Below, piece after piece: positions 949 through 8,863 of a stretch of 64,000 nucleotides of DNA. A program made the position numbers and the translations under genes. The stretch spans positions 256,001 to 320,000 of the forward strand of contig CBDCTJ010000007.1 in the NCBI GenBank assembly GCA_965222115.1. The letters run 5' to 3'. Position 1 is the first letter of the stretch. Every line of letters starts with the position of its first letter. Under the pieces are notes generated by a model. That model made no database searches. It had not been told where the DNA came from and saw only the letters and a list, made by a program, of their open reading frames with translations. This DNA is from Planctomycetota bacterium. GTDB taxonomy: Bacteria; Planctomycetota; PLA2; JAEUHO01.

Positions 949-3900
949 TTGCAGCGCCCTGAACGCTCATTGATGAACGACGACGACGGCGACGACGACG
1001 GTCTTGATCGCGCCCGTAGGCGCTCATTGATGAACCGTTTCGAGTGTCAGTCGAAGGATCTCCAGAAGGTGTCCTGATCGCGTTCGCAGACGCTCATTGA
1101 TGAACATCTCCCTCACCGAGATTCTCGGCCCCGCCGAACTCGTCTTGATCGCGTCCGTAGACGCTCATTGATGAACTGTCGCGAACTCCGCGCGCTCAAC
1201 CGCGCAGGGCAGTCTTGATCGCGTCCGTAGACGCTCATTGATGAACCAGATCCTCTCGGAGACGCCGCGGAATCGGAAGTGGTGTCTTGATCGCGTCCGT
1301 AGACGCTCATTGATGAACGAAGATCCTTTCGAAGGGGCTTGAGGTCGAGCGTGTGTCTTGATCGCGTCCGTAGACGCTCATTGATGAACCTGGGCTGAGC
1401 ACACTCGCCCAGTTATCTACGAGTCTTGATCGCGCCCGTAGGCGCTCATTGATAAGCGTACCTCCGACCGATATCGATCGCTGATGGCACGTCTTGATCG
1501 CGTCCATAGACGCTCATTGATGAACGCGTCGCACTTCAGTGACGCTCTCCTCGGAGCTGCCTTTTCTTGATCGCATCCAGAAACGCTCATTGATGAACCC
1601 TACACTGTGGTGGACGCCACCGAGCTGCCTAGTCTTGATCGCGTCCGTAGACGCTCATTTAAGAACCAACTTGCGCGAGGCCTACTTGCGCGAGGCCGAC
1701 GTCCTGATCGCGCCCGTAGGCGCTCATTGATGAACCTGCCGACTCCAACGCCAAAGTGGAAGAGCTCGGGTCTAGATCGCGTCCGTAGACGCTCATTGAT
1801 GAACGTGCAGATCTCTCGGAACAAGGATGGCATGACCGTCTTGATCGCGTCCGTAGACGCTCATTGATGAACCAGTGGCGACCACGCACCGTGTGCATAT
1901 TGCACACCGTCTTGATCGCGCCCGTAGGCGCTCATTGATGAGCTAGCGCGCTGCCCAAGCGTGGGGCAGTAGACAAGGTCTTGATCGCGCCCGGAAACGC
2001 TCGTTGATGACAAAGTACCCTCTCCACTCCGTGACCATCGAGAAGTCGTGATCGCGTCAGTAGACGCTCATTGTTGAACTCGCCTGGTGGCAGGCGCGGG
2101 CCGTGCGACGCGAGTCTTGATCGCGTCGGTAGACACTCATTGATGAACACACCCCCATGAAGCGTCTGCTTCTTCTCGTGGCCGTCTTGATCGCGTCCGT
2201 AGACGCTCATTGATGAACTCGAGTACAACAGCTCGACGTACCAGTCGAGACGAAGTCTTGATCGCGTCCGTAGACGCTCATTGATGAACGGGCTGGAAGC
2301 GCTGGCGAGCACCGGTACAGGTGTCTTGATCGCGTCCGTAGACGCTCATTGATGAACTTAGATCCGCTAGTCGAGGTCATAGAAGACTCGTCTTGATCGC
2401 GTCCGTAGACGCTCATTGATGAACTCGCCGAGGATCGCCCGCCCGTCACGCCGCCTACGAGTCTTGATCGCGTCCGTAGACGCTCATTGATGAACGCGCT
2501 CAACGCCACGACCTCGGCGGCGGCTGTGCTGTCTTGATCGCGTCCGTAGACGCTCATTGATGAACGTGAGCTCGGTCTGGACCTCGGAACTTCGGTTCCG
2601 TCTTGATCGCGTCCGTAGACGCTCATTGATGAACATGTCGCTCTCTGGAGCAACGAGCGCGTGATCGACGTCTTGATCGCGTCCGTAGACGCTCATTGAT
2701 GAACCATTGTTGGTTGACTCCCAACTATCTTGTTCTCTGTCTTGATCGCGTCCGTAGACGCTCATTGATGAACTGGCTCCGCGCTGGGTCGAGGTTCCGA
2801 CGGTGCCTGGTCTTGATCGCGTCCGTAGACGCTCATTGATGAACCGCAATGTTGAAGATAAGCGAGGAGCACGTCGACAGTCTTGATCGCGTCCGTAGAC
2901 GCTCATTGATGAACGTGTAAGCGCCCTTGGAAAGGTCGTTGACACGACCGCTGTCTTGATCGCGTCCGTAGACGCTCATTGATGAACCCAAGAGCAGAAG
3001 GCAGCTCGTGAGGAGTACAACCGTCTTGATCGCGTCCGTAGACGCTCATTGATGAACTCACGCTCGAGTACACACCGGCAACCGTCGCCATGTCTTGATC
3101 GCGTCCGTAGACGCTCATTGATGAACTGACTCACTTGCCATGAGTCACGGATCTGACAAGTCTTGATCGCGTCCGTAGACGCTCATTGATGAACTCTTTG
3201 AAGTGGATCATCGGTGTCGGCTGGGCCAAGTCTTGATCGCGTCCGTAGACGCTCATTGATGAACGCTACGTCATTCGCCCCCTGAGTGAAGGGGTTCAAG
3301 TCTTGATCGCGTCCGTAGACGCTCATTGATGAACGAATCACTGGAGACGGATACCCCAAACGTGTTTCGTCTTGATCGCGTCCGTAGACGCTCATTGATG
3401 AACCCAGAGCAACGACTGGCAACGGTCGTGGGGTGCGGTGTCTTGATCGCGTCCGTAGACGCTCATTGATGAACCTGGGGGACGCGACCCGGCTGCGTTT
3501 GATAGAGGCGTCTTGATCGCGTCCGTAGACGCTCATTGATGAACCCGTCCCTGCGGACGACGACGCGACGACCTCACGCGCGATCCCCTCGGCACCGACA
3601 CGAGCATTGATGAACCCGTCCCTGCGGACGACGACGCGACCCCGGAATCGTCTTGATCGCGTCCGTAGACGCTCATTGATGAACGAAGGCGCTCGACGGG
3701 AGAAGGTCAAGCTGACGTCTTGATCGCGTCCGTAGACGCTCATTGATGAACGGCAAGGCATTTGATGTCGCGCTTTTTCAAAAGCGTCTTGATCGCGTCC
3801 GTAGACGCTCATTGATGAACCGCCACCATTCGGTTCTGCGTCGGATGGCTTTGCGTCTTGATCGCGTCCGTAGACGCTCATTGATGAACAAACAAATGGG

Positions 3901-4517
3901 CAGCCTCGGCTGCGCGGTACGCGTCTTGATCGCGTCCGTAGACGCTCATTGATGAACGACAACACCGGACATATAGACTCTCTCCGTCAGTCGGTCTTGA
4001 TCGCGTCCGTAGACGCTCATTGATGAACGGCCTTAATTAAAGTGGGCGTTGACGTCCGCTGGTAGTCTTGATCGCGTCCGTAGACGCTCATTGATGAACG
4101 ACGCATGCGTTCGCGTCTGCGAGGTGCGCGTCGGTCTTGATCGCGTCCGTAGACGCTCATTGATGAACTTCGTTGCCGGTCGCCATGGTGCTCGCACACC
4201 GCGTCTTGATCGCGTCCGTAGACGCTCATTGATGAACTTGGTCCAGAACCAGCGTGTCGACCAGGCATGGAAGGTCTTGATCGCGTCCGTAGACGCTCAT
4301 TGATGAACGTGGTGATTGCTGTTCAACTATCACCACCAGAGCCGTCTTGATCGCGTCCGTAGACGCTCATTGATGAACGTAAGAGAACATATCAACGAAC
4401 GTAAATTCGAAGTCTTGATCGCGTCCGTAGACGCTCATTGATGAACAATGTGGGGGCACGCTTTACCAGGGTTCGGAAGCCTGTCTTGATCGCGTCCGTA
4501 GACGCTCATTGATGAAC
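949..4517 (-). CRISPR. CRISPR array, ~51 repeats / ~50 spacers; repeat GTTCATCAATGAGCGTCTACGGACGCGATCAAGAC (minus-strand sense, 35 bp)
   Basis: The plus-strand unit GTCTTGATCGCGTCCGTAGACGCTCATTGATGAAC recurs about every 70 bp with ~32-38 nt unique spacers and an internal GCGTC-TACG-GACGC hairpin. Degenerate repeats cluster at the left end (trailer), and the ATCAAGAC 3' end is typical of type III handles. Count done by eye. Confidence 0.98.
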
Positions 4518-4887
4518 CCCTCAGGGTTCGGTCGAATCTTGCAATTAGCTGTCAGAGAACGAGTTACAACGAATTGGTGTTCCATTGGGGACTCTCAAGG
4601 TGCGTAGATTCCACCACGCGCCTCGTTTCAGCGCTCTTTGCGCCCCATCGCTTTCCGCGCCGGCCGTCAACTTATTGGCTCTGACACGCTTCCTGAAATG
4701 GGGATCTGATTCGACCTTTCGGTCGTCTCGCGGAGCAGGCCGTACCCACGCGGGGCCACAGTCGCCTGCATCTCCTTCATTCTCCGAAATTCAGCCAATC
4801 CTGTCAAGCAGCACCCGGCTGGAGACAGCACCGAATCGTCGGAGAGGCCACGTGGATGGCCTGTGGACGCGAGTTCAGATTGAGACT
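4518..4887 (-). promoter_or_regulatory. CRISPR leader region
   Basis: Non-coding interval between the cas2 stop and the first perfect repeat, at the end opposite the degenerate repeats; more AT-rich next to the repeat. Confidence 0.7.
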
Positions 4888-5160
4888 CTACAAATAGCGC
4901 ACGCCTCCCGTTGTCACCTTGGTTCGTCGCCAACAGAGCGCGCGCCGCGAAGCGCGCACGTCCATTGGAATGAGGTCAAAGTCGTCGTCAGTGTCGAGGA
5001 GGGCGCCGATGTCTACCAGAAAGTCGTCCAGTTCTTCCCGCGAGACGCGCACTTCAAAGACCGATCGCTGCACACGGCGACCGTAGCGCGAGAGCACGCG
5101 AGCCACGCGGCGCCGAACGCTCGCCGAAGAGATGTCATAGGCGGCGACGTAGTTGCTCAT
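4888..5160 (-). CDS. cas2: CRISPR-associated endonuclease Cas2
   Basis: 90 aa; YVAAYDI...RRRVARVLSRYGRRVQRSVFE signature; start overlaps the cas1-fusion stop. Confidence 0.96.
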   Translation of the reverse strand: MSNYVAAYDISSASVRRRVARVLSRYGRRVQRSVFEVRVSREELDDFLVDIGALLDTDDDFDLIPMDVRASRRALCWRRTKVTTGGVRYL

Positions 5161-7901
5161 GGGTGTCGAAATCCGGGCGCGGGCCGCGTTGGATCGACGA
5201 GATAACGACGCATGGCGCGCGCCAACGCGCGAATGCGTCCATGGTAGGTGAGCGGGTCCTCCCCCTTCCGCAGCACCGTGGGAATGTGAAAGCCCTCGTG
5301 AATGGCAATTCGAAGACGCCTGGCAAGTCGCGGCGACACCGAGACACGAAACGGCCCGAGCCGTGTCTTACGAAAGTCTGAACTCCGTGCAACACGCATC
5401 ACGTCGAGCACACAGCGGTCCATCAAGTGTCGAAATGGCTCCTGAAGATCCGACACCAGTGCATCGTGACCACTGCGCGGGCGATGAAGCACGCCGAGTT
5501 CCGGAAGCAACCCCGCCGACACCACATGCACACGAATCACACGATGAAGGGCCGTCTGCGCGATATTGAGCAGAACATTGACGGGGTCGTTGGCACGCGG
5601 AGCTCGACGCCCTGGAAATGACCATCCCGATGGAAGCCACGACGGAAACAGCTCGTACCACAGCGCCGCGGCGGCGCCTTCCACACCCACGAGCACTTCC
5701 GCCGAGATCGCCGATTCCGCTCGACGAATGTGGGCACGCATCTGTTCCTGGGCATGAGGGTGCTTGCGCGGGCAGCCAAGGGCCCCAATCAGTGCCGCGT
5801 GATTGGCAATTTTGGAGGCGATCAGTTCGCGGGCTGCGGGCAGAGTTCGTTCCGCCTGGCGAACGCAATCGACCTGTGCGGCCACGACGTCAAAGGAGCG
5901 CCTGCCGCCCTCGCCAACCAAGGCCGCCACGTCCCGACCACCCTTGCCGGTCATGGAGAGTGGAATGCGTCGGCGGATCAAGTAGCGAATCGCACGACGG
6001 GAAAGTGACGGATGGCCCAGAACAACGAGGTCGTCGATGTGACTTGTTCCGCACGCGCGCTCTTCGCCGTTCTCGGTGCGCAAGACAAGATTGCCGCGCA
6101 CGGCGTCGATTTCGACGATATCCGATCCCACAATGCCGGTGTCGCCCGTGGGATCTGCCGCCGTCAACGACACCTCACCGGGCAGTCGCCAATCGGGATG
6201 GGCGCGGGAACGCTCGGTACGCGCTTCCCAACCAATGCGACCAAGTGACGTGGGCGCGGGATCGCCGCGCACGTTCCATTGCTTTTGATACTCAAAGGTG
6301 AAGCCAAGAAACTCGAGCGAGGGTCCGATTTCGTGGACGCTTGACTTGGACTCGTTGAGTGCGAGTGCCAGCGCGCGGGCTTCGTCCTTGGCCGCTTGGT
6401 ACATGACCTGCGCTTCTTCTTCCGTCTTCGTAAGCACAACAAAGTCATCGGCATAGCGAATTAGCAAGGCGCCACGGGCCAACATGGCTTCGTCAAATGC
6501 GTCCAGCACGACGTTGGCAAGGAGTGGAGACAGAGGTGCCCCTGTGGGAAGGCCTACCTTTAGCGGCGCCATGGCGCTGCGCACCCAGTTCATAATGAGA
6601 CTTGCCGTGCTCGGAGACCTGAGAAACGCTCGCAGGCGCAACTCACACAAGTCGTGCGGCACATTGTTATAGAAGTCGGCAAAGTCCGACTTCACGGCCC
6701 AGGCGTAGCCGGACTCCTGCGCGCGATGAATACGGGAAAGCGCGTCCACACGCCCGAGGCCGGGGCGAAAGGCAATTGAAGCATCCTCCAGGAGGCATTC
6801 AATCCCGGGAAGGAGGGTGGCGTTAAGAAGACGTTGCAGGGCCATGTCGCGTTTCTTCGGAATACGCAACGACCGGACCTTGCCTGGCTTGGTTTCTACG
6901 TCGATGCGCATCGGTGCCGCGGGTGAATACGTGCCTTGCGCAACTTCCTGCGTGGCCTCCGTGAGTTCACCACTCGGAAGCGCATGCCGTTCGGCCTCGC
7001 GCGAAACTGCGTAGGACGTAAACGCGAGCCGCTCAAGCGACACGGCACGGGTACACGCGTAGGGCTCGGGTCCAAGTTCGGCAATGCGGTAGCGGCCCAG
7101 TCCAAATCGCGTGCCGTTTCCGGCTCCGGCATATTGCCCCAGCACCAGTGCCATGCGGTCGTTGGGTTCCACATCTTGCAACACGACCCGACCCACTGCA
7201 CCGCCTAGCGTCTTGCGCCGCTCCATGGGCCCGTATCCGAGATCGAGCCACACGAGATCCGACGACGTGAGCGTGCCGGTCCGTCGATACGGGGTCGGGT
7301 GCTTCTCAATGAGATTGAGCATCTCCATGCGACGATGCACGCGGCCCAGGAAGGGACCGGGTTCAAAACAGTCCCCATCAAGCCATCGATGCCGTGGGCG
7401 TGTTCGCCCGGCCGTGCGTCGCATGCGCAGGGGTGTCTCGAAGTCAAGTGTAAACGTTCGATGTGCGTCGAGTTTGAATCGTTCTGCTGCAACGCGCTCA
7501 TCGGGTAGCTCAACAAGGGGCGACTCAAAATCCCAGAGTTCGCGTGCGATCAAGTCTTCGACGCGTGTCACGATGAAGTTGCCTCGGAGACGAGTGCCCT
7601 TTGTGCGGCGGGCCGTGCCCATGGCCTGCAGTCCCTGCACGACGCGGGCAAGTTCATCGGCGGCGGCACGCCCATCGCGCGCAATCATGGTGTAGCCAAA
7701 GGCAAAGTTCGCGTCGCGCTCAATCGACGAACGACACTGCTCCGGCGCGTCGAGCAAGAACCCCTCGGGAAACTGATCCGGTTGGTCGAGGGCGAATCCG
7801 TAGGCCGCCGCCGTGAGTGCATAGAGCGCCCCTGCTTGATGGCCCGGCAGCGCGACGTGATCTGTTGCGCGAATCAGAATGCGGACGCGGCAGAGATGCA
7901 C
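5157..7901 (-). CDS. cas1: Cas6-reverse transcriptase-Cas1 triple fusion (~914 aa)
   Basis: Likely GTG start at 7901 with a GAGGAG RBS 7 nt upstream. Cas6 G-rich loop GQYAGAGNGTRFGLGRY. RT motifs SIAFRPG, SDFADFY, GLPTGAPLSPLLAN, RYADDF. Cas1 motifs GVEG, RRAPRANDPVN, GVLH, SDLQEPFR. Confidence 0.93.
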   Translation of the reverse strand: MHLCRVRILIRATDHVALPGHQAGALYALTAAAYGFALDQPDQFPEGFLLDAPEQCRSSIERDANFAFGYTMIARDGRAAADELARVVQGLQAMGTARRTKGTRLRGNFIVTRVEDLIARELWDFESPLVELPDERVAAERFKLDAHRTFTLDFETPLRMRRTAGRTRPRHRWLDGDCFEPGPFLGRVHRRMEMLNLIEKHPTPYRRTGTLTSSDLVWLDLGYGPMERRKTLGGAVGRVVLQDVEPNDRMALVLGQYAGAGNGTRFGLGRYRIAELGPEPYACTRAVSLERLAFTSYAVSREAERHALPSGELTEATQEVAQGTYSPAAPMRIDVETKPGKVRSLRIPKKRDMALQRLLNATLLPGIECLLEDASIAFRPGLGRVDALSRIHRAQESGYAWAVKSDFADFYNNVPHDLCELRLRAFLRSPSTASLIMNWVRSAMAPLKVGLPTGAPLSPLLANVVLDAFDEAMLARGALLIRYADDFVVLTKTEEEAQVMYQAAKDEARALALALNESKSSVHEIGPSLEFLGFTFEYQKQWNVRGDPAPTSLGRIGWEARTERSRAHPDWRLPGEVSLTAADPTGDTGIVGSDIVEIDAVRGNLVLRTENGEERACGTSHIDDLVVLGHPSLSRRAIRYLIRRRIPLSMTGKGGRDVAALVGEGGRRSFDVVAAQVDCVRQAERTLPAARELIASKIANHAALIGALGCPRKHPHAQEQMRAHIRRAESAISAEVLVGVEGAAAALWYELFPSWLPSGWSFPGRRAPRANDPVNVLLNIAQTALHRVIRVHVVSAGLLPELGVLHRPRSGHDALVSDLQEPFRHLMDRCVLDVMRVARSSDFRKTRLGPFRVSVSPRLARRLRIAIHEGFHIPTVLRKGEDPLTYHGRIRALARAMRRYLVDPTRPAPGFRHP

Positions 7902-7918
7902 CTGGATTCTCCTCGTTG

Positions 7919-8863
7919 CTAACTCACGTTCGTTGGTTGTGCCTGGGCTTGGAGCCACGTGTCGATGTGCGCCCGCAGCGACGACAATTCCACCGCCATG
8001 ACGCCAGCATCGCGAAGTCGTCGCACCATGCCACCCCACCTGCGCCGCTCTCGAATGAGGCAAGGAATGGCGACGAGCCACATCTCCGGCAGATCGAAAG
8101 ACCCCGGCATGCGTACGCGGTGGAGAATGGAAAGCGCGCGCTTGCATTGCTTCTCATCAATGCGTCTCGCGCTTCCGCTCTTGGCCTCGATGCGGAGCAG
8201 CGAGACCTTAGAAGGTGGCAGATCAATGCGGGCCACGACATCAAACTCAATCTGCCGCAGGAGCCGTCGCACGCGCCGACTCTGACTACGTCCATGCACA
8301 CGATGGTGCGTGGAAACGGCTAGATTCTTAATCGTGGCTACCGATACATTTCGCATGCGAGCCATGTCGTGCAGCGCGCGCTCAATGGCCACGGTCAACC
8401 AATCGCCGAGGACAAAGTTCAGCGCCTCACCACGCACGATTTCGTAGTCAACGTGCACCAGCCGCTTGCCTTGGTAGGCGGCCTGGATGGAGCCTCGCTT
8501 GATAGCGCCCGCGTCAACGAGTCGATGGGTGAATTCCAAAAGAACGTCAGCGCGCACGGCGTCCGGCACCTCCCGACGTCGTCGCGTCGTTGCCTGACGT
8601 ATGCGTGTCTGTCCGCGTGCCTCGCACGTTCGAAGCCGCGAAAGGATGGGATCCAGTTCACGGGCGTGCTCGGCCAGATAATCGGCGAGGGCGATGAAGT
8701 CTTGGGAGAAGGAATGCGCATGGTGCGCATTGAGATTGAACGAGCGCATAAACCGACGTAGCTGCGCCGCGCGCAGCGCGTCGTCCAGTTCGTCGTCCCG
8801 CCATACGCGCCTGCCTGAAGGCGGGGACGCTAGCTGCCATGATCGGGCGGGACTCATAGTCAC
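7919..8863 (-). CDS. PD-(D/E)xK nuclease-domain protein resembling the Card1/Can2 (DUF1887-like) nuclease domain, without a recognisable CARF domain
   Basis: NFVLGDWL...EFDVV...IEAKSG motif arrangement; start overlaps the csx1 stop and the gene sits within the cas operon. Confidence 0.6.
   Translation of the reverse strand: MTMSPARSWQLASPPSGRRVWRDDELDDALRAAQLRRFMRSFNLNAHHAHSFSQDFIALADYLAEHARELDPILSRLRTCEARGQTRIRQATTRRRREVPDAVRADVLLEFTHRLVDAGAIKRGSIQAAYQGKRLVHVDYEIVRGEALNFVLGDWLTVAIERALHDMARMRNVSVATIKNLAVSTHHRVHGRSQSRRVRRLLRQIEFDVVARIDLPPSKVSLLRIEAKSGSARRIDEKQCKRALSILHRVRMPGSFDLPEMWLVAIPCLIRERRRWGGMVRRLRDAGVMAVELSSLRAHIDTWLQAQAQPTNVS

Follow-up and report, generated by a model that had tools for sequence, protein, structure and literature searches.

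What is known of off-target spacer integration by CRISPR adaptation enzymes comes mainly from work in test tubes and with induced E. coli, and natural products of the process are rarely recognised. Among the closest described systems is the Cas6-RT-Cas1-Cas2 complex of Thiomicrospira (RT, reverse transcriptase). According to excerpts of the published work on this complex, full-site insertion in vitro has as its signature a duplication of the 35 bp next to it (Wang et al. 2021, PMC8102632). The plasmid assay used a synthetic double-stranded DNA spacer and selection; 12 of its 14 full-site events fell at the leader-repeat junction and 2 of the 14 elsewhere, and many off-target half-site attacks were reported (PMC8102632). 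Here we describe a CRISPR array in a 64,000-nucleotide stretch of a Planctomycetota bacterium (assembly GCA_965222115.1, contig CBDCTJ010000007.1, positions 256,001 to 320,000; hereafter the window). The array adjoins genes for a Cas6-RT-Cas1 fusion and Cas2, and it holds a 35-nt insert enclosed by two exact copies of a 36-bp target. We consider it highly probable that the array's own Cas6-RT-Cas1/Cas2 integrase made this structure in one off-target full-site integration. In vitro, such integration with a 35-bp duplication has been described before for a Cas6-RT-Cas1 complex, and the present case is a natural example of a known process. As far as the excerpts describe the Thiomicrospira system, the two have in common the Cas6-RT-Cas1 plus Cas2 architecture, a 35-bp repeat and an insertion accompanied by a repeat-length duplication. 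Unlike the products of that assay, the event described here is natural, chromosomal and inside an array, its insert is host-derived, and its duplication is made of spacer plus the edge of a repeat. The proteins would be distant: the relatives of Cas6-RT-Cas1 that we found by sequence come from planctomycete metagenome-assembled genomes and are 34-42% identical to it.

Other systems offer partial parallels, given here as far as the cited passages go. Induced Cas1-Cas2 of E. coli type I-E integrates off target into the genome in vivo with target duplication (Nivala, Shipman and Church 2018, via 10.1101/148544 and PMC6698737). As in those neo-CRISPR events, a spacer sits here at a non-canonical site in vivo and the target is duplicated. 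The induced E. coli events, however, lie outside arrays and can seed new ones, whereas the present system is type III-B with an RT-Cas1, and its insertion is in the array, out of register, with no further growth at the pseudo-repeat. Type II-A ectopic acquisition (McGinn and Marraffini 2016; Achigar et al. 2017, 2021; via PMC8047081 and 10.1101/2022.05.19.492656) likewise places a new spacer in the array interior and not at the leader. Those passages describe the use of a true internal repeat, which yields a normal unit, whereas the target here is shifted by 24-25 bp, which yields a duplicated chimeric pseudo-repeat. For the Cas1-Cas2 of P. furiosus, off-target sites are described as sharing features with repeats (PMC6698737), and in types I-E and I-B mid-repeat ruler motifs set the cut sites by distance (Goren 2016 and Wang R 2016, via PMC6698737; PMC4872114). 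This logic is also that of the palindrome rule weighed below, but the Cas1 families in those passages differ from RT-Cas1 and a cruciform was not required there; in the literature searched on RT-Cas1 integrases, we found no comparable ruler measurement. The type III-B RT-Cas1 of Marinomonas mediterranea is described as acquiring spacers from RNA and DNA in either orientation (PMC5576922; 10.1101/2023.09.01.555893). Host-derived spacers are common to both systems, and 3 of the 52 pieces of the present array come from the organism's own genes or genome. The M. mediterranea data in these sources were obtained by over-expression, whereas here the self-derived spacers persist in a natural array. 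For natural out-of-register integration inside an array, we found no paper in the literature searched, of which passages only were covered, so that this is no proof of absence.

A spacer-sized insert lies between two copies of its target

The array (Table 1) is built on the 35-nt repeat CATTGATGAAC. The inter-repeat intervals are 32-38 nt long in 48 cases (35 nt and 36 nt in 11 each, 37 nt in one), and the sole outlier, 3545-3649, measures 105 nt. At this place, positions 3534-3569 recur exactly at 3605-3640 (36/36), with the identity extending 0 nt further on either side. The two copies, 71 bp apart, enclose 35 unique nucleotides (3570-3604). The duplicated block consists of the last 11 nt of the 35-nt repeat, as read on the plus strand, and the first 25 nt of the 34-nt spacer A (3616-3649), just as the initial annotation of the window had described it. 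An exact 36-bp repeat at a 71-bp distance cannot be chance. Elsewhere in the array, no spacer holds 9 or more nucleotides of the repeat and no pair of spacers has 11 or more in common; the duplication-insert-duplication structure is unique within it.

The boundaries given by the initial annotation are right for the exact repeat, but each of the true junctions can be placed in two ways, 1 nt apart, because the source gene of the insert (see below) also has a C at both flanks and thus matches over 37/37 nucleotides. The lengths of duplication and insert can be read as 36/35, as 35/36 (in two ways) or as 34/37. A duplication of 35 or 36 bp is most likely; the version with 34 bp and 37 nt is less favoured, since 37-nt spacers are rare in the array (1/48) and those of 35 and 36 nt are common. 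The 35-bp version would equal the repeat length exactly and leave a 36-nt spacer. Two features of a Cas1-Cas2 full-site product are present: a target duplication as long as the repeat (34-36 bp versus 35) and an insert as long as a spacer (35-37 nt versus 32-38 nt).

By folding, we could also confirm the palindrome that had been seen in the block. The plus strand forms a 5-bp stem with a 4-nt loop, CGTCC-CTGC-GGACG, at positions 13-26, and in the centroid structure of the reverse-complemented repeat the hairpin occupies positions 13-26, out of 35. The description of the event as a "fossil" is not borne out: neither the two copies of the duplication nor the insert has a substitution, and nothing in them shows age. 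Twelve newer spacers separate the event from the leader, and it could have taken place at any time after the acquisition of spacer A.

The insert comes from the organism's own aconitase gene

Searching the own genome, we located 3569-3605 (37 nt) at a single place, G000:C7:2858138-2858174 on the minus strand (37/37), 2.6 Mb away on the same contig. This place belongs to a 918-codon minus-strand open reading frame (ORF) with strong aconitase domains (PF00330, 3e-167), so the search for a protospacer led to the organism's own aconitase gene. Within the insert, this gene's sense strand lies on the plus strand of the window. According to the initial annotation, one contiguous foreign source for the 60 nt at 3545-3604 would have spoken against a separate integration. 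We find that only 3569-3605 matches; the 24 nt to its left (3545-3568) and the bases from 3606 on are unrelated to the aconitase locus, and the integration reading withstands this check. The protospacer source is separate from the duplicated target and not contiguous with it, as in a full-site integration product.

Performing BLAST of the 52 spacer pieces against the own genome, we obtained only three long matches outside the array: the insert (35/35), the newest spacer (36/36) and the spacer 3752-3785 (26/34). The newest, leader-proximal spacer, 4447-4482, equals G000:C7:1109513-1109548 of the own chromosome (minus strand). No long ORF and no Pfam-typed gene covers this locus, which adjoins a short hairpin, and neither Rfam (E up to 0.1) nor ARAGORN (no transfer RNA) returned anything there. 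Three more loci carry the last 19-20 nt of this spacer, and a fourth matches 28 nt of it with 2 mismatches.

The spacer 3752-3785 has a composite make-up. Its first 26 nt are the sense strand of the organism's own ion-transport gene (G000:C3:170785-170810, minus strand; Ion_trans 3.9e-35), at a locus with no Rfam match. Its last 8 nt are TC followed by the reverse complement of the preceding 6 nt, which is a fold-back shape. Snap-back synthesis of DNA in vitro is described for the M. mediterranea RT-Cas1/Cas2 in the excerpted preprint (10.1101/2023.09.01.555893). By analogy, RT snap-back on a host transcript may have left this spacer as its natural trace.

The new junctions occur in public sequence data

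The public run data that we searched are contigs built with k=31, and 31-mers cannot span the 36-bp duplication. Within this limit, run X1 holds both new junctions, on a 101-nt contig with a depth of about 7. In run X2, which belongs to a different study, the right-hand junction is found: a 209-nt contig opens with 9 nt of the insert, followed by the orphan repeat end, spacer A and the next repeat. Run X3 matched only with a contig of the aconitase gene, run X5 gave nothing, and parts of the queried stretch were without contig cover. The X2 contig over 3596-3684 continues, after the repeat 3650-3684, into the spacer of 4238-4273. This path comes either from a related strain that lacks eight repeat-spacer units or from a graph path through the shared repeat.

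A probable integrase event and its alternatives

The initial annotation had taken the structure for an integrase-type insertion, and we arrive at the same reading because a repeat-length duplication and a spacer-length insert from a distant place in the own genome coincide with an adjoining intact integrase. The exact duplication with its length, the length and chromosomal source of the insert, the intact adaptation genes and the junction words in public contigs are direct observations, from which we infer the identity of the enzyme and the order of events. In the proposed order, the starting state would have been repeat, spacer A, repeat. Two staggered attacks 34-36 bp apart would have hit a window displaced 24-25 bp leaderward from the true repeat 3510-3544, which takes in 24-25 bp of spacer A and, in the orientation of the CRISPR RNA (crRNA), the opening 10-11 bp of the repeat. 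A 35-37-nt fragment of the own aconitase gene or its messenger RNA (mRNA), with RNA or DNA as the source, would have been joined in, and gap repair would have duplicated the target to give target-insert-target. On the minus strand, the 36-bp version and the 3535-3569 version both place a cut at G/GT (the slash marks the cut); in related arrays the repeat starts with GT in 11/12 and the last leader base is G in 9/12.

An artefact of assembly or sequencing, for example a chimeric join of the array and the aconitase gene, would be in keeping with the repeat-rich, misassembly-prone nature of CRISPR arrays, with the possibility that X1 is the source data, and with an odd loop path in the X1 contig. 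Junction-spanning 31-mers are nonetheless present at a depth of about 7 in X1, and the right-hand junction recurs in X2; the occurrence of junction words in two studies makes an assembly chimera unlikely. Moreover, a graph misjoin needs about 30 shared bases, while the array and the aconitase gene have only the insert in common, and a chimera would not yield a precise 36-bp duplication. We regard an artefact as extremely improbable. A replication template switch mediated by microhomology would need no integrase at all: a fork would copy about 35 nt of the aconitase gene and return 36 nt upstream. Duplication-insert-duplication is a known outcome of template switching, and the one shared C per junction could act as a minimal microhomology. 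Yet 1 nt is minimal, the flanks being otherwise unrelated, and the switch would have to match the sizes of the repeat (35) and the spacers (32-38) by accident, in a CRISPR array beside an intact integrase. When we scanned the genome for exact direct repeats of at least 24 nt at offsets of 55-89 bp, no other such structure appeared outside the two CRISPR arrays of the genome and simple tandem repeats. A template switch is very unlikely to have made this one. Among the tandem repeats, the hexamer ACGTGG forms long arrays at several loci of G000:C7 at about 2.27-2.69 Mb, and a 28-nt tandem repeat lies at C7:2787384.

Further explanations were rejected or do not fit. Canonical acquisition followed by rearrangement needs a 24-nt deletion and a 25-nt insertion 35 nt away, that is, two separate matched indels. 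As for a diverged repeat hidden in the insert, only a GATC-centred stretch is, by eye, common to insert and repeat, and the 37/37 aconitase match explains the insert fully. Repeat-mediated slippage or unequal recombination is at odds with breakpoints inside a spacer and at repeat position 24/25, and with an insert that comes from 2.6 Mb away. Ectopic acquisition at an internal repeat does not give a duplication of spacer plus repeat edge, or a spacer A preceded only by an 11-nt repeat end. As for a neo-CRISPR array, the site is inside an array, there is a single insert, and no such structure exists elsewhere in the genome.

Several points weigh against the integrase event. The k=31 contigs are blind to a coexisting pre-insertion allele, which lacks any 31-mer unique to it. 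The genome may have been assembled from X1, which would then not be independent, and over 3534-3604 the X1 contig reads insert-duplication-insert, which is either a k=31 graph loop or a variant with two 71-bp units. On one side of its junction, the X2 contig offers no more than 9 nt, short of the 31 nt required for bridging. There is a single event, without a pre-insertion allele for comparison. An exact scan with the 45-nt stretch 3605-3649 gave 0 matches in the genome and metagenome contig collections, the full repeat gave 0 matches in the metagenome contig collection, and the repeat core was found with up to 3 mismatches in 0/28 other genomes of the family. Finally, no analogous event turned up in 12 related arrays with 151 repeats. 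This survey covered 13 loci of Cas6-RT-Cas1 homologues in the genome contig collection, 8 of them with arrays (110 repeats), which were checked for over-long intervals, and four new arrays from a 400-genome sample of the phylum (41 repeats), which were checked also for off-register exact duplications; a fifth array in that sample was on a contig already examined.

Long intervals do occur in the related arrays L043 (the same as L071), L050, L052 and L073, as degenerate or duplicated units at the array ends. In L043/L071, L050 and L073, the end units include adjacent spacers that are nearly identical, a repeat that has lost part of its interior and tandem copies of 70 bp; these ends are ordinary trailer-end decay and not off-register integration.

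An off-target integration of this kind matters for several reasons. The product is unusually clean, with an exact duplication, a defined source and a defined displacement, and it belongs to the RT-Cas1 class that is used for transcript recording. It would mean that, in a living cell, the integrase keeps to its ruler of about 35 bp even where the site is not a repeat. The pre-insertion repeat-spacer-repeat is a natural substrate for asking what the enzyme reads, be it the palindrome, the GT step or the distance. For array annotation, an over-long "spacer" may be two spacers and a pseudo-repeat.

Two readings of the site

The initial annotation had gone further and drawn from the event a palindrome-anchored rule in inverted register. 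In this reading, the integrase would have chosen the site through a hairpin mimic in spacer A, with a ruler centred on the 5-bp stem and 4-nt loop (12/14/9) and in inverted orientation. The geometry does fit within 0-1 nt. A hairpin lies at 13-26 both in the plus-strand target and in the reverse-complemented repeat, and if the duplication is taken as 3534-3568 (35 bp), its dot-bracket structure is identical to those of the repeat and the relative L042 (12/14/9). Comparing the inverted target with the repeat, we find 19/35 bases alike, including GTC at the start, where the cut is, and CGTCCG at 11-16; both stems hold CGTC...GACG. The consulted part of PMC6698737 describes mid-repeat motifs as rulers in types I-E and I-B and off-target sites as resembling repeats, but it also states that the I-E and I-B studies found no need for a cruciform to form. 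The rule, moreover, rests on one event. At 16 other non-repeat sites of the array, palindromes that are equal or better (stems of at least 5 bp with 3-6-nt loops, five of them 6-bp stems with 4-nt loops) were not hit. Nor is an identity of 19/35 exceptional: it shares rank 5-9 among 7,102 array windows, and some 2,240 further 35-mers of the genome reach it. The exact register (3534-3568) puts neither cut at 5'-GT, and the versions that do so (ending at 3569) are 1 nt off. By our own rough estimate, random placement would come within 1 nt of either register in about 5-10% of cases. The 9-nt flank after the hairpin is conserved in relatives, but it is not evidence on the integrase, because Cas6 processing requires that flank. 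Hence, we can give this choice of site only a tentative place among the explanations, well short of an even chance.

An integrase event in direct orientation is just as tentative. Here, the leader-side attack would have occurred at G/GT, ATCAA near the true repeat start would have been mistaken for the ATCAA of the far end, the second cut would have been set by a 35-36-bp ruler, and the palindrome would be irrelevant. On the minus strand, the real junction reads GAGGG/GTTCAT and the off-target one CCGGG/GTCGCG, with GGG/GT in both. The related arrays have G at leader position -1 in 9/12 and a repeat start of GT in 11/12, and the true repeat start does hold the same ATCAA as the far end: in crRNA orientation the repeat starts with GTTCATCAATG and ends with GATCAAGAC, and ATCAA is common to both. 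The Fig. 4 legend of PMC8102632 includes insertion sites at -25 and -45 bp among others, of which the first may be comparable with the leaderward displacement of 24-25 bp here. Speaking against this orientation, the far end of the target (...CAATG or ...CAAT) is without the AC that ends the repeat in 12/12 related arrays, and the hairpin is 2 nt off register (10/14/12 versus 12/14/9). With one event only, the inverted and direct readings are inseparable. The remaining weight falls on an off-target event near the array that was rare and essentially unguided.

As a general rule, the idea that the RT-Cas1 integrase has a ruler fixed at 35 bp and centres it on a short central palindrome, whatever the leader, the repeat ends and the orientation may be, seems doubtful to us. 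If it were true, the present event would be the first natural record of how an RT-Cas1 integrase picks its target, and a spacer would become a latent integration site whenever it happened to hold a palindrome of this kind suitably spaced from a 5'-GT. Out-of-register insertions would leave spacers without a handle, and in this way an RT-Cas1 system sampling the transcripts of its host could store self-derived sequences as silent records without autoimmunity.

Probable fate of the insert

From the leader, the order of the elements is a full repeat, spacer A, 11 nt of repeat start, the insert in antisense to aconitase, 25 nt of spacer A and a full repeat. In type III crRNAs processed by Cas6, the 8-nt handle is cut from a complete repeat, and the sequence immediately following it is the guide. 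Judged by this order, only spacer A would sit in a guide position, and the insert would be preceded by the wrong end of the repeat. With no complete repeat ahead of it, the insert should have neither a Cas6 site nor an 8-nt handle. The guide antisense to aconitase mRNA is thus probably never made, which would leave a dead guide. One would expect a type III system to act on such a guide, and the missing handle would explain why a self-derived insertion was tolerated. A misplaced insertion would offer a simple route by which a potentially autoimmune self-derived spacer could persist.

The array, its leader and the neighbouring cas genes

By its gene content, the locus qualifies as a CRISPR-Cas system of type III-B with a Cas6-RT-Cas1 adaptation module and an adjacent array (Table 1). 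The integrase genes beside the leader appear intact, namely cas2 and an ORF with Cas1, RT and Cas6 domains. Mismatches to the repeat number 0-6 along the array, with 1-6 at low coordinates and perfect repeats from 2184 upward. The low end, where repeats are degenerate, is thus the trailer, and the leader would be 4518-4887. We take the crRNA to be the minus-strand transcript, because the cas genes are on the same strand and the repeat then reads GT, hairpin, AC (12/14/9) as in the relatives.

Table 1. Features of the CRISPR locus, with coordinates in the window.
Feature	Coordinates	Strand	Remarks
CRISPR array	963-4517	-	50 full 35-nt repeats and a truncated terminal repeat (963-978)
True repeat, trailer side of event	3510-3544	-	last 11 nt (3534-3544) part of duplicated target
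Left target-site duplication copy	3534-3569		exact repeat 36 bp; true duplication 34-36 bp
Palindrome CGTCC-CTGC-GGACG in duplicated target	3546-3559		second copy at 3617-3630
Insert	3570-3604	+	35 nt (37 with C3569 and C3605); sense strand of own aconitase gene
Right target-site duplication copy	3605-3640		3605-3615 is the orphan 11-nt repeat end
Spacer A (34-nt spacer that was hit)	3616-3649	-	intact in right copy; first 25 nt repeated at 3545-3569
True repeat, leader side	3650-3684	-	only proper handle for the whole 105-nt interval
Leader (putative)	4518-4887	-	junction on minus strand ...GAGGG/GTTCAT
cas2	4888-5160	-	PF09827, 1.2e-12
Cas6-RT-Cas1 fusion	5157-8147	-	996 aa, uninterrupted; Pfam Cas1 1e-46, RVT_1 4.9e-27, Cas6 3.2e-8; YADD at residue 565
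Type III-B effector module	8860-17884	-	Pfam and NCBIfam matches
TM1812/Csx20-type accessory protein	8860-10839	-	
Two RAMP proteins	10661-11920 and 12308-13228	-	read as Cmr6 and Cmr4 by gene order
Cmr5, Cmr3, Cas10/Cmr2 and Cmr1	beyond the RAMP genes, within 8860-17884	-	Pfam/NCBIfam

A 314-aa ORF at 7919-8863 (minus strand), between the Cas6-RT-Cas1 gene and the TM1812/Csx20-type gene, has no Pfam or NCBIfam match. Outside the window, a second CRISPR array lies at G000:C7:871192-873199. It has at least 31 repeats of a different kind, ending in ATTGAAAC, and is regular, with spacings of 66-70 nt and no irregular units.

At the trailer end of the array in the window (963-1000), the last 16 nt of a repeat (963-978) are followed by a 22-nt, GACGAC-rich last spacer. 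Positions 963-1000 hold the array's best inverted look-alike of the repeat (23/35), and GACGACGACG is also present in spacer A. At the opposite end, the first repeat meets the leader within a palindrome with a 6-bp stem and a 4-nt loop, GAACCC-CTCA-GGGTTC (4514-4529), which could matter for recognition on the leader side.

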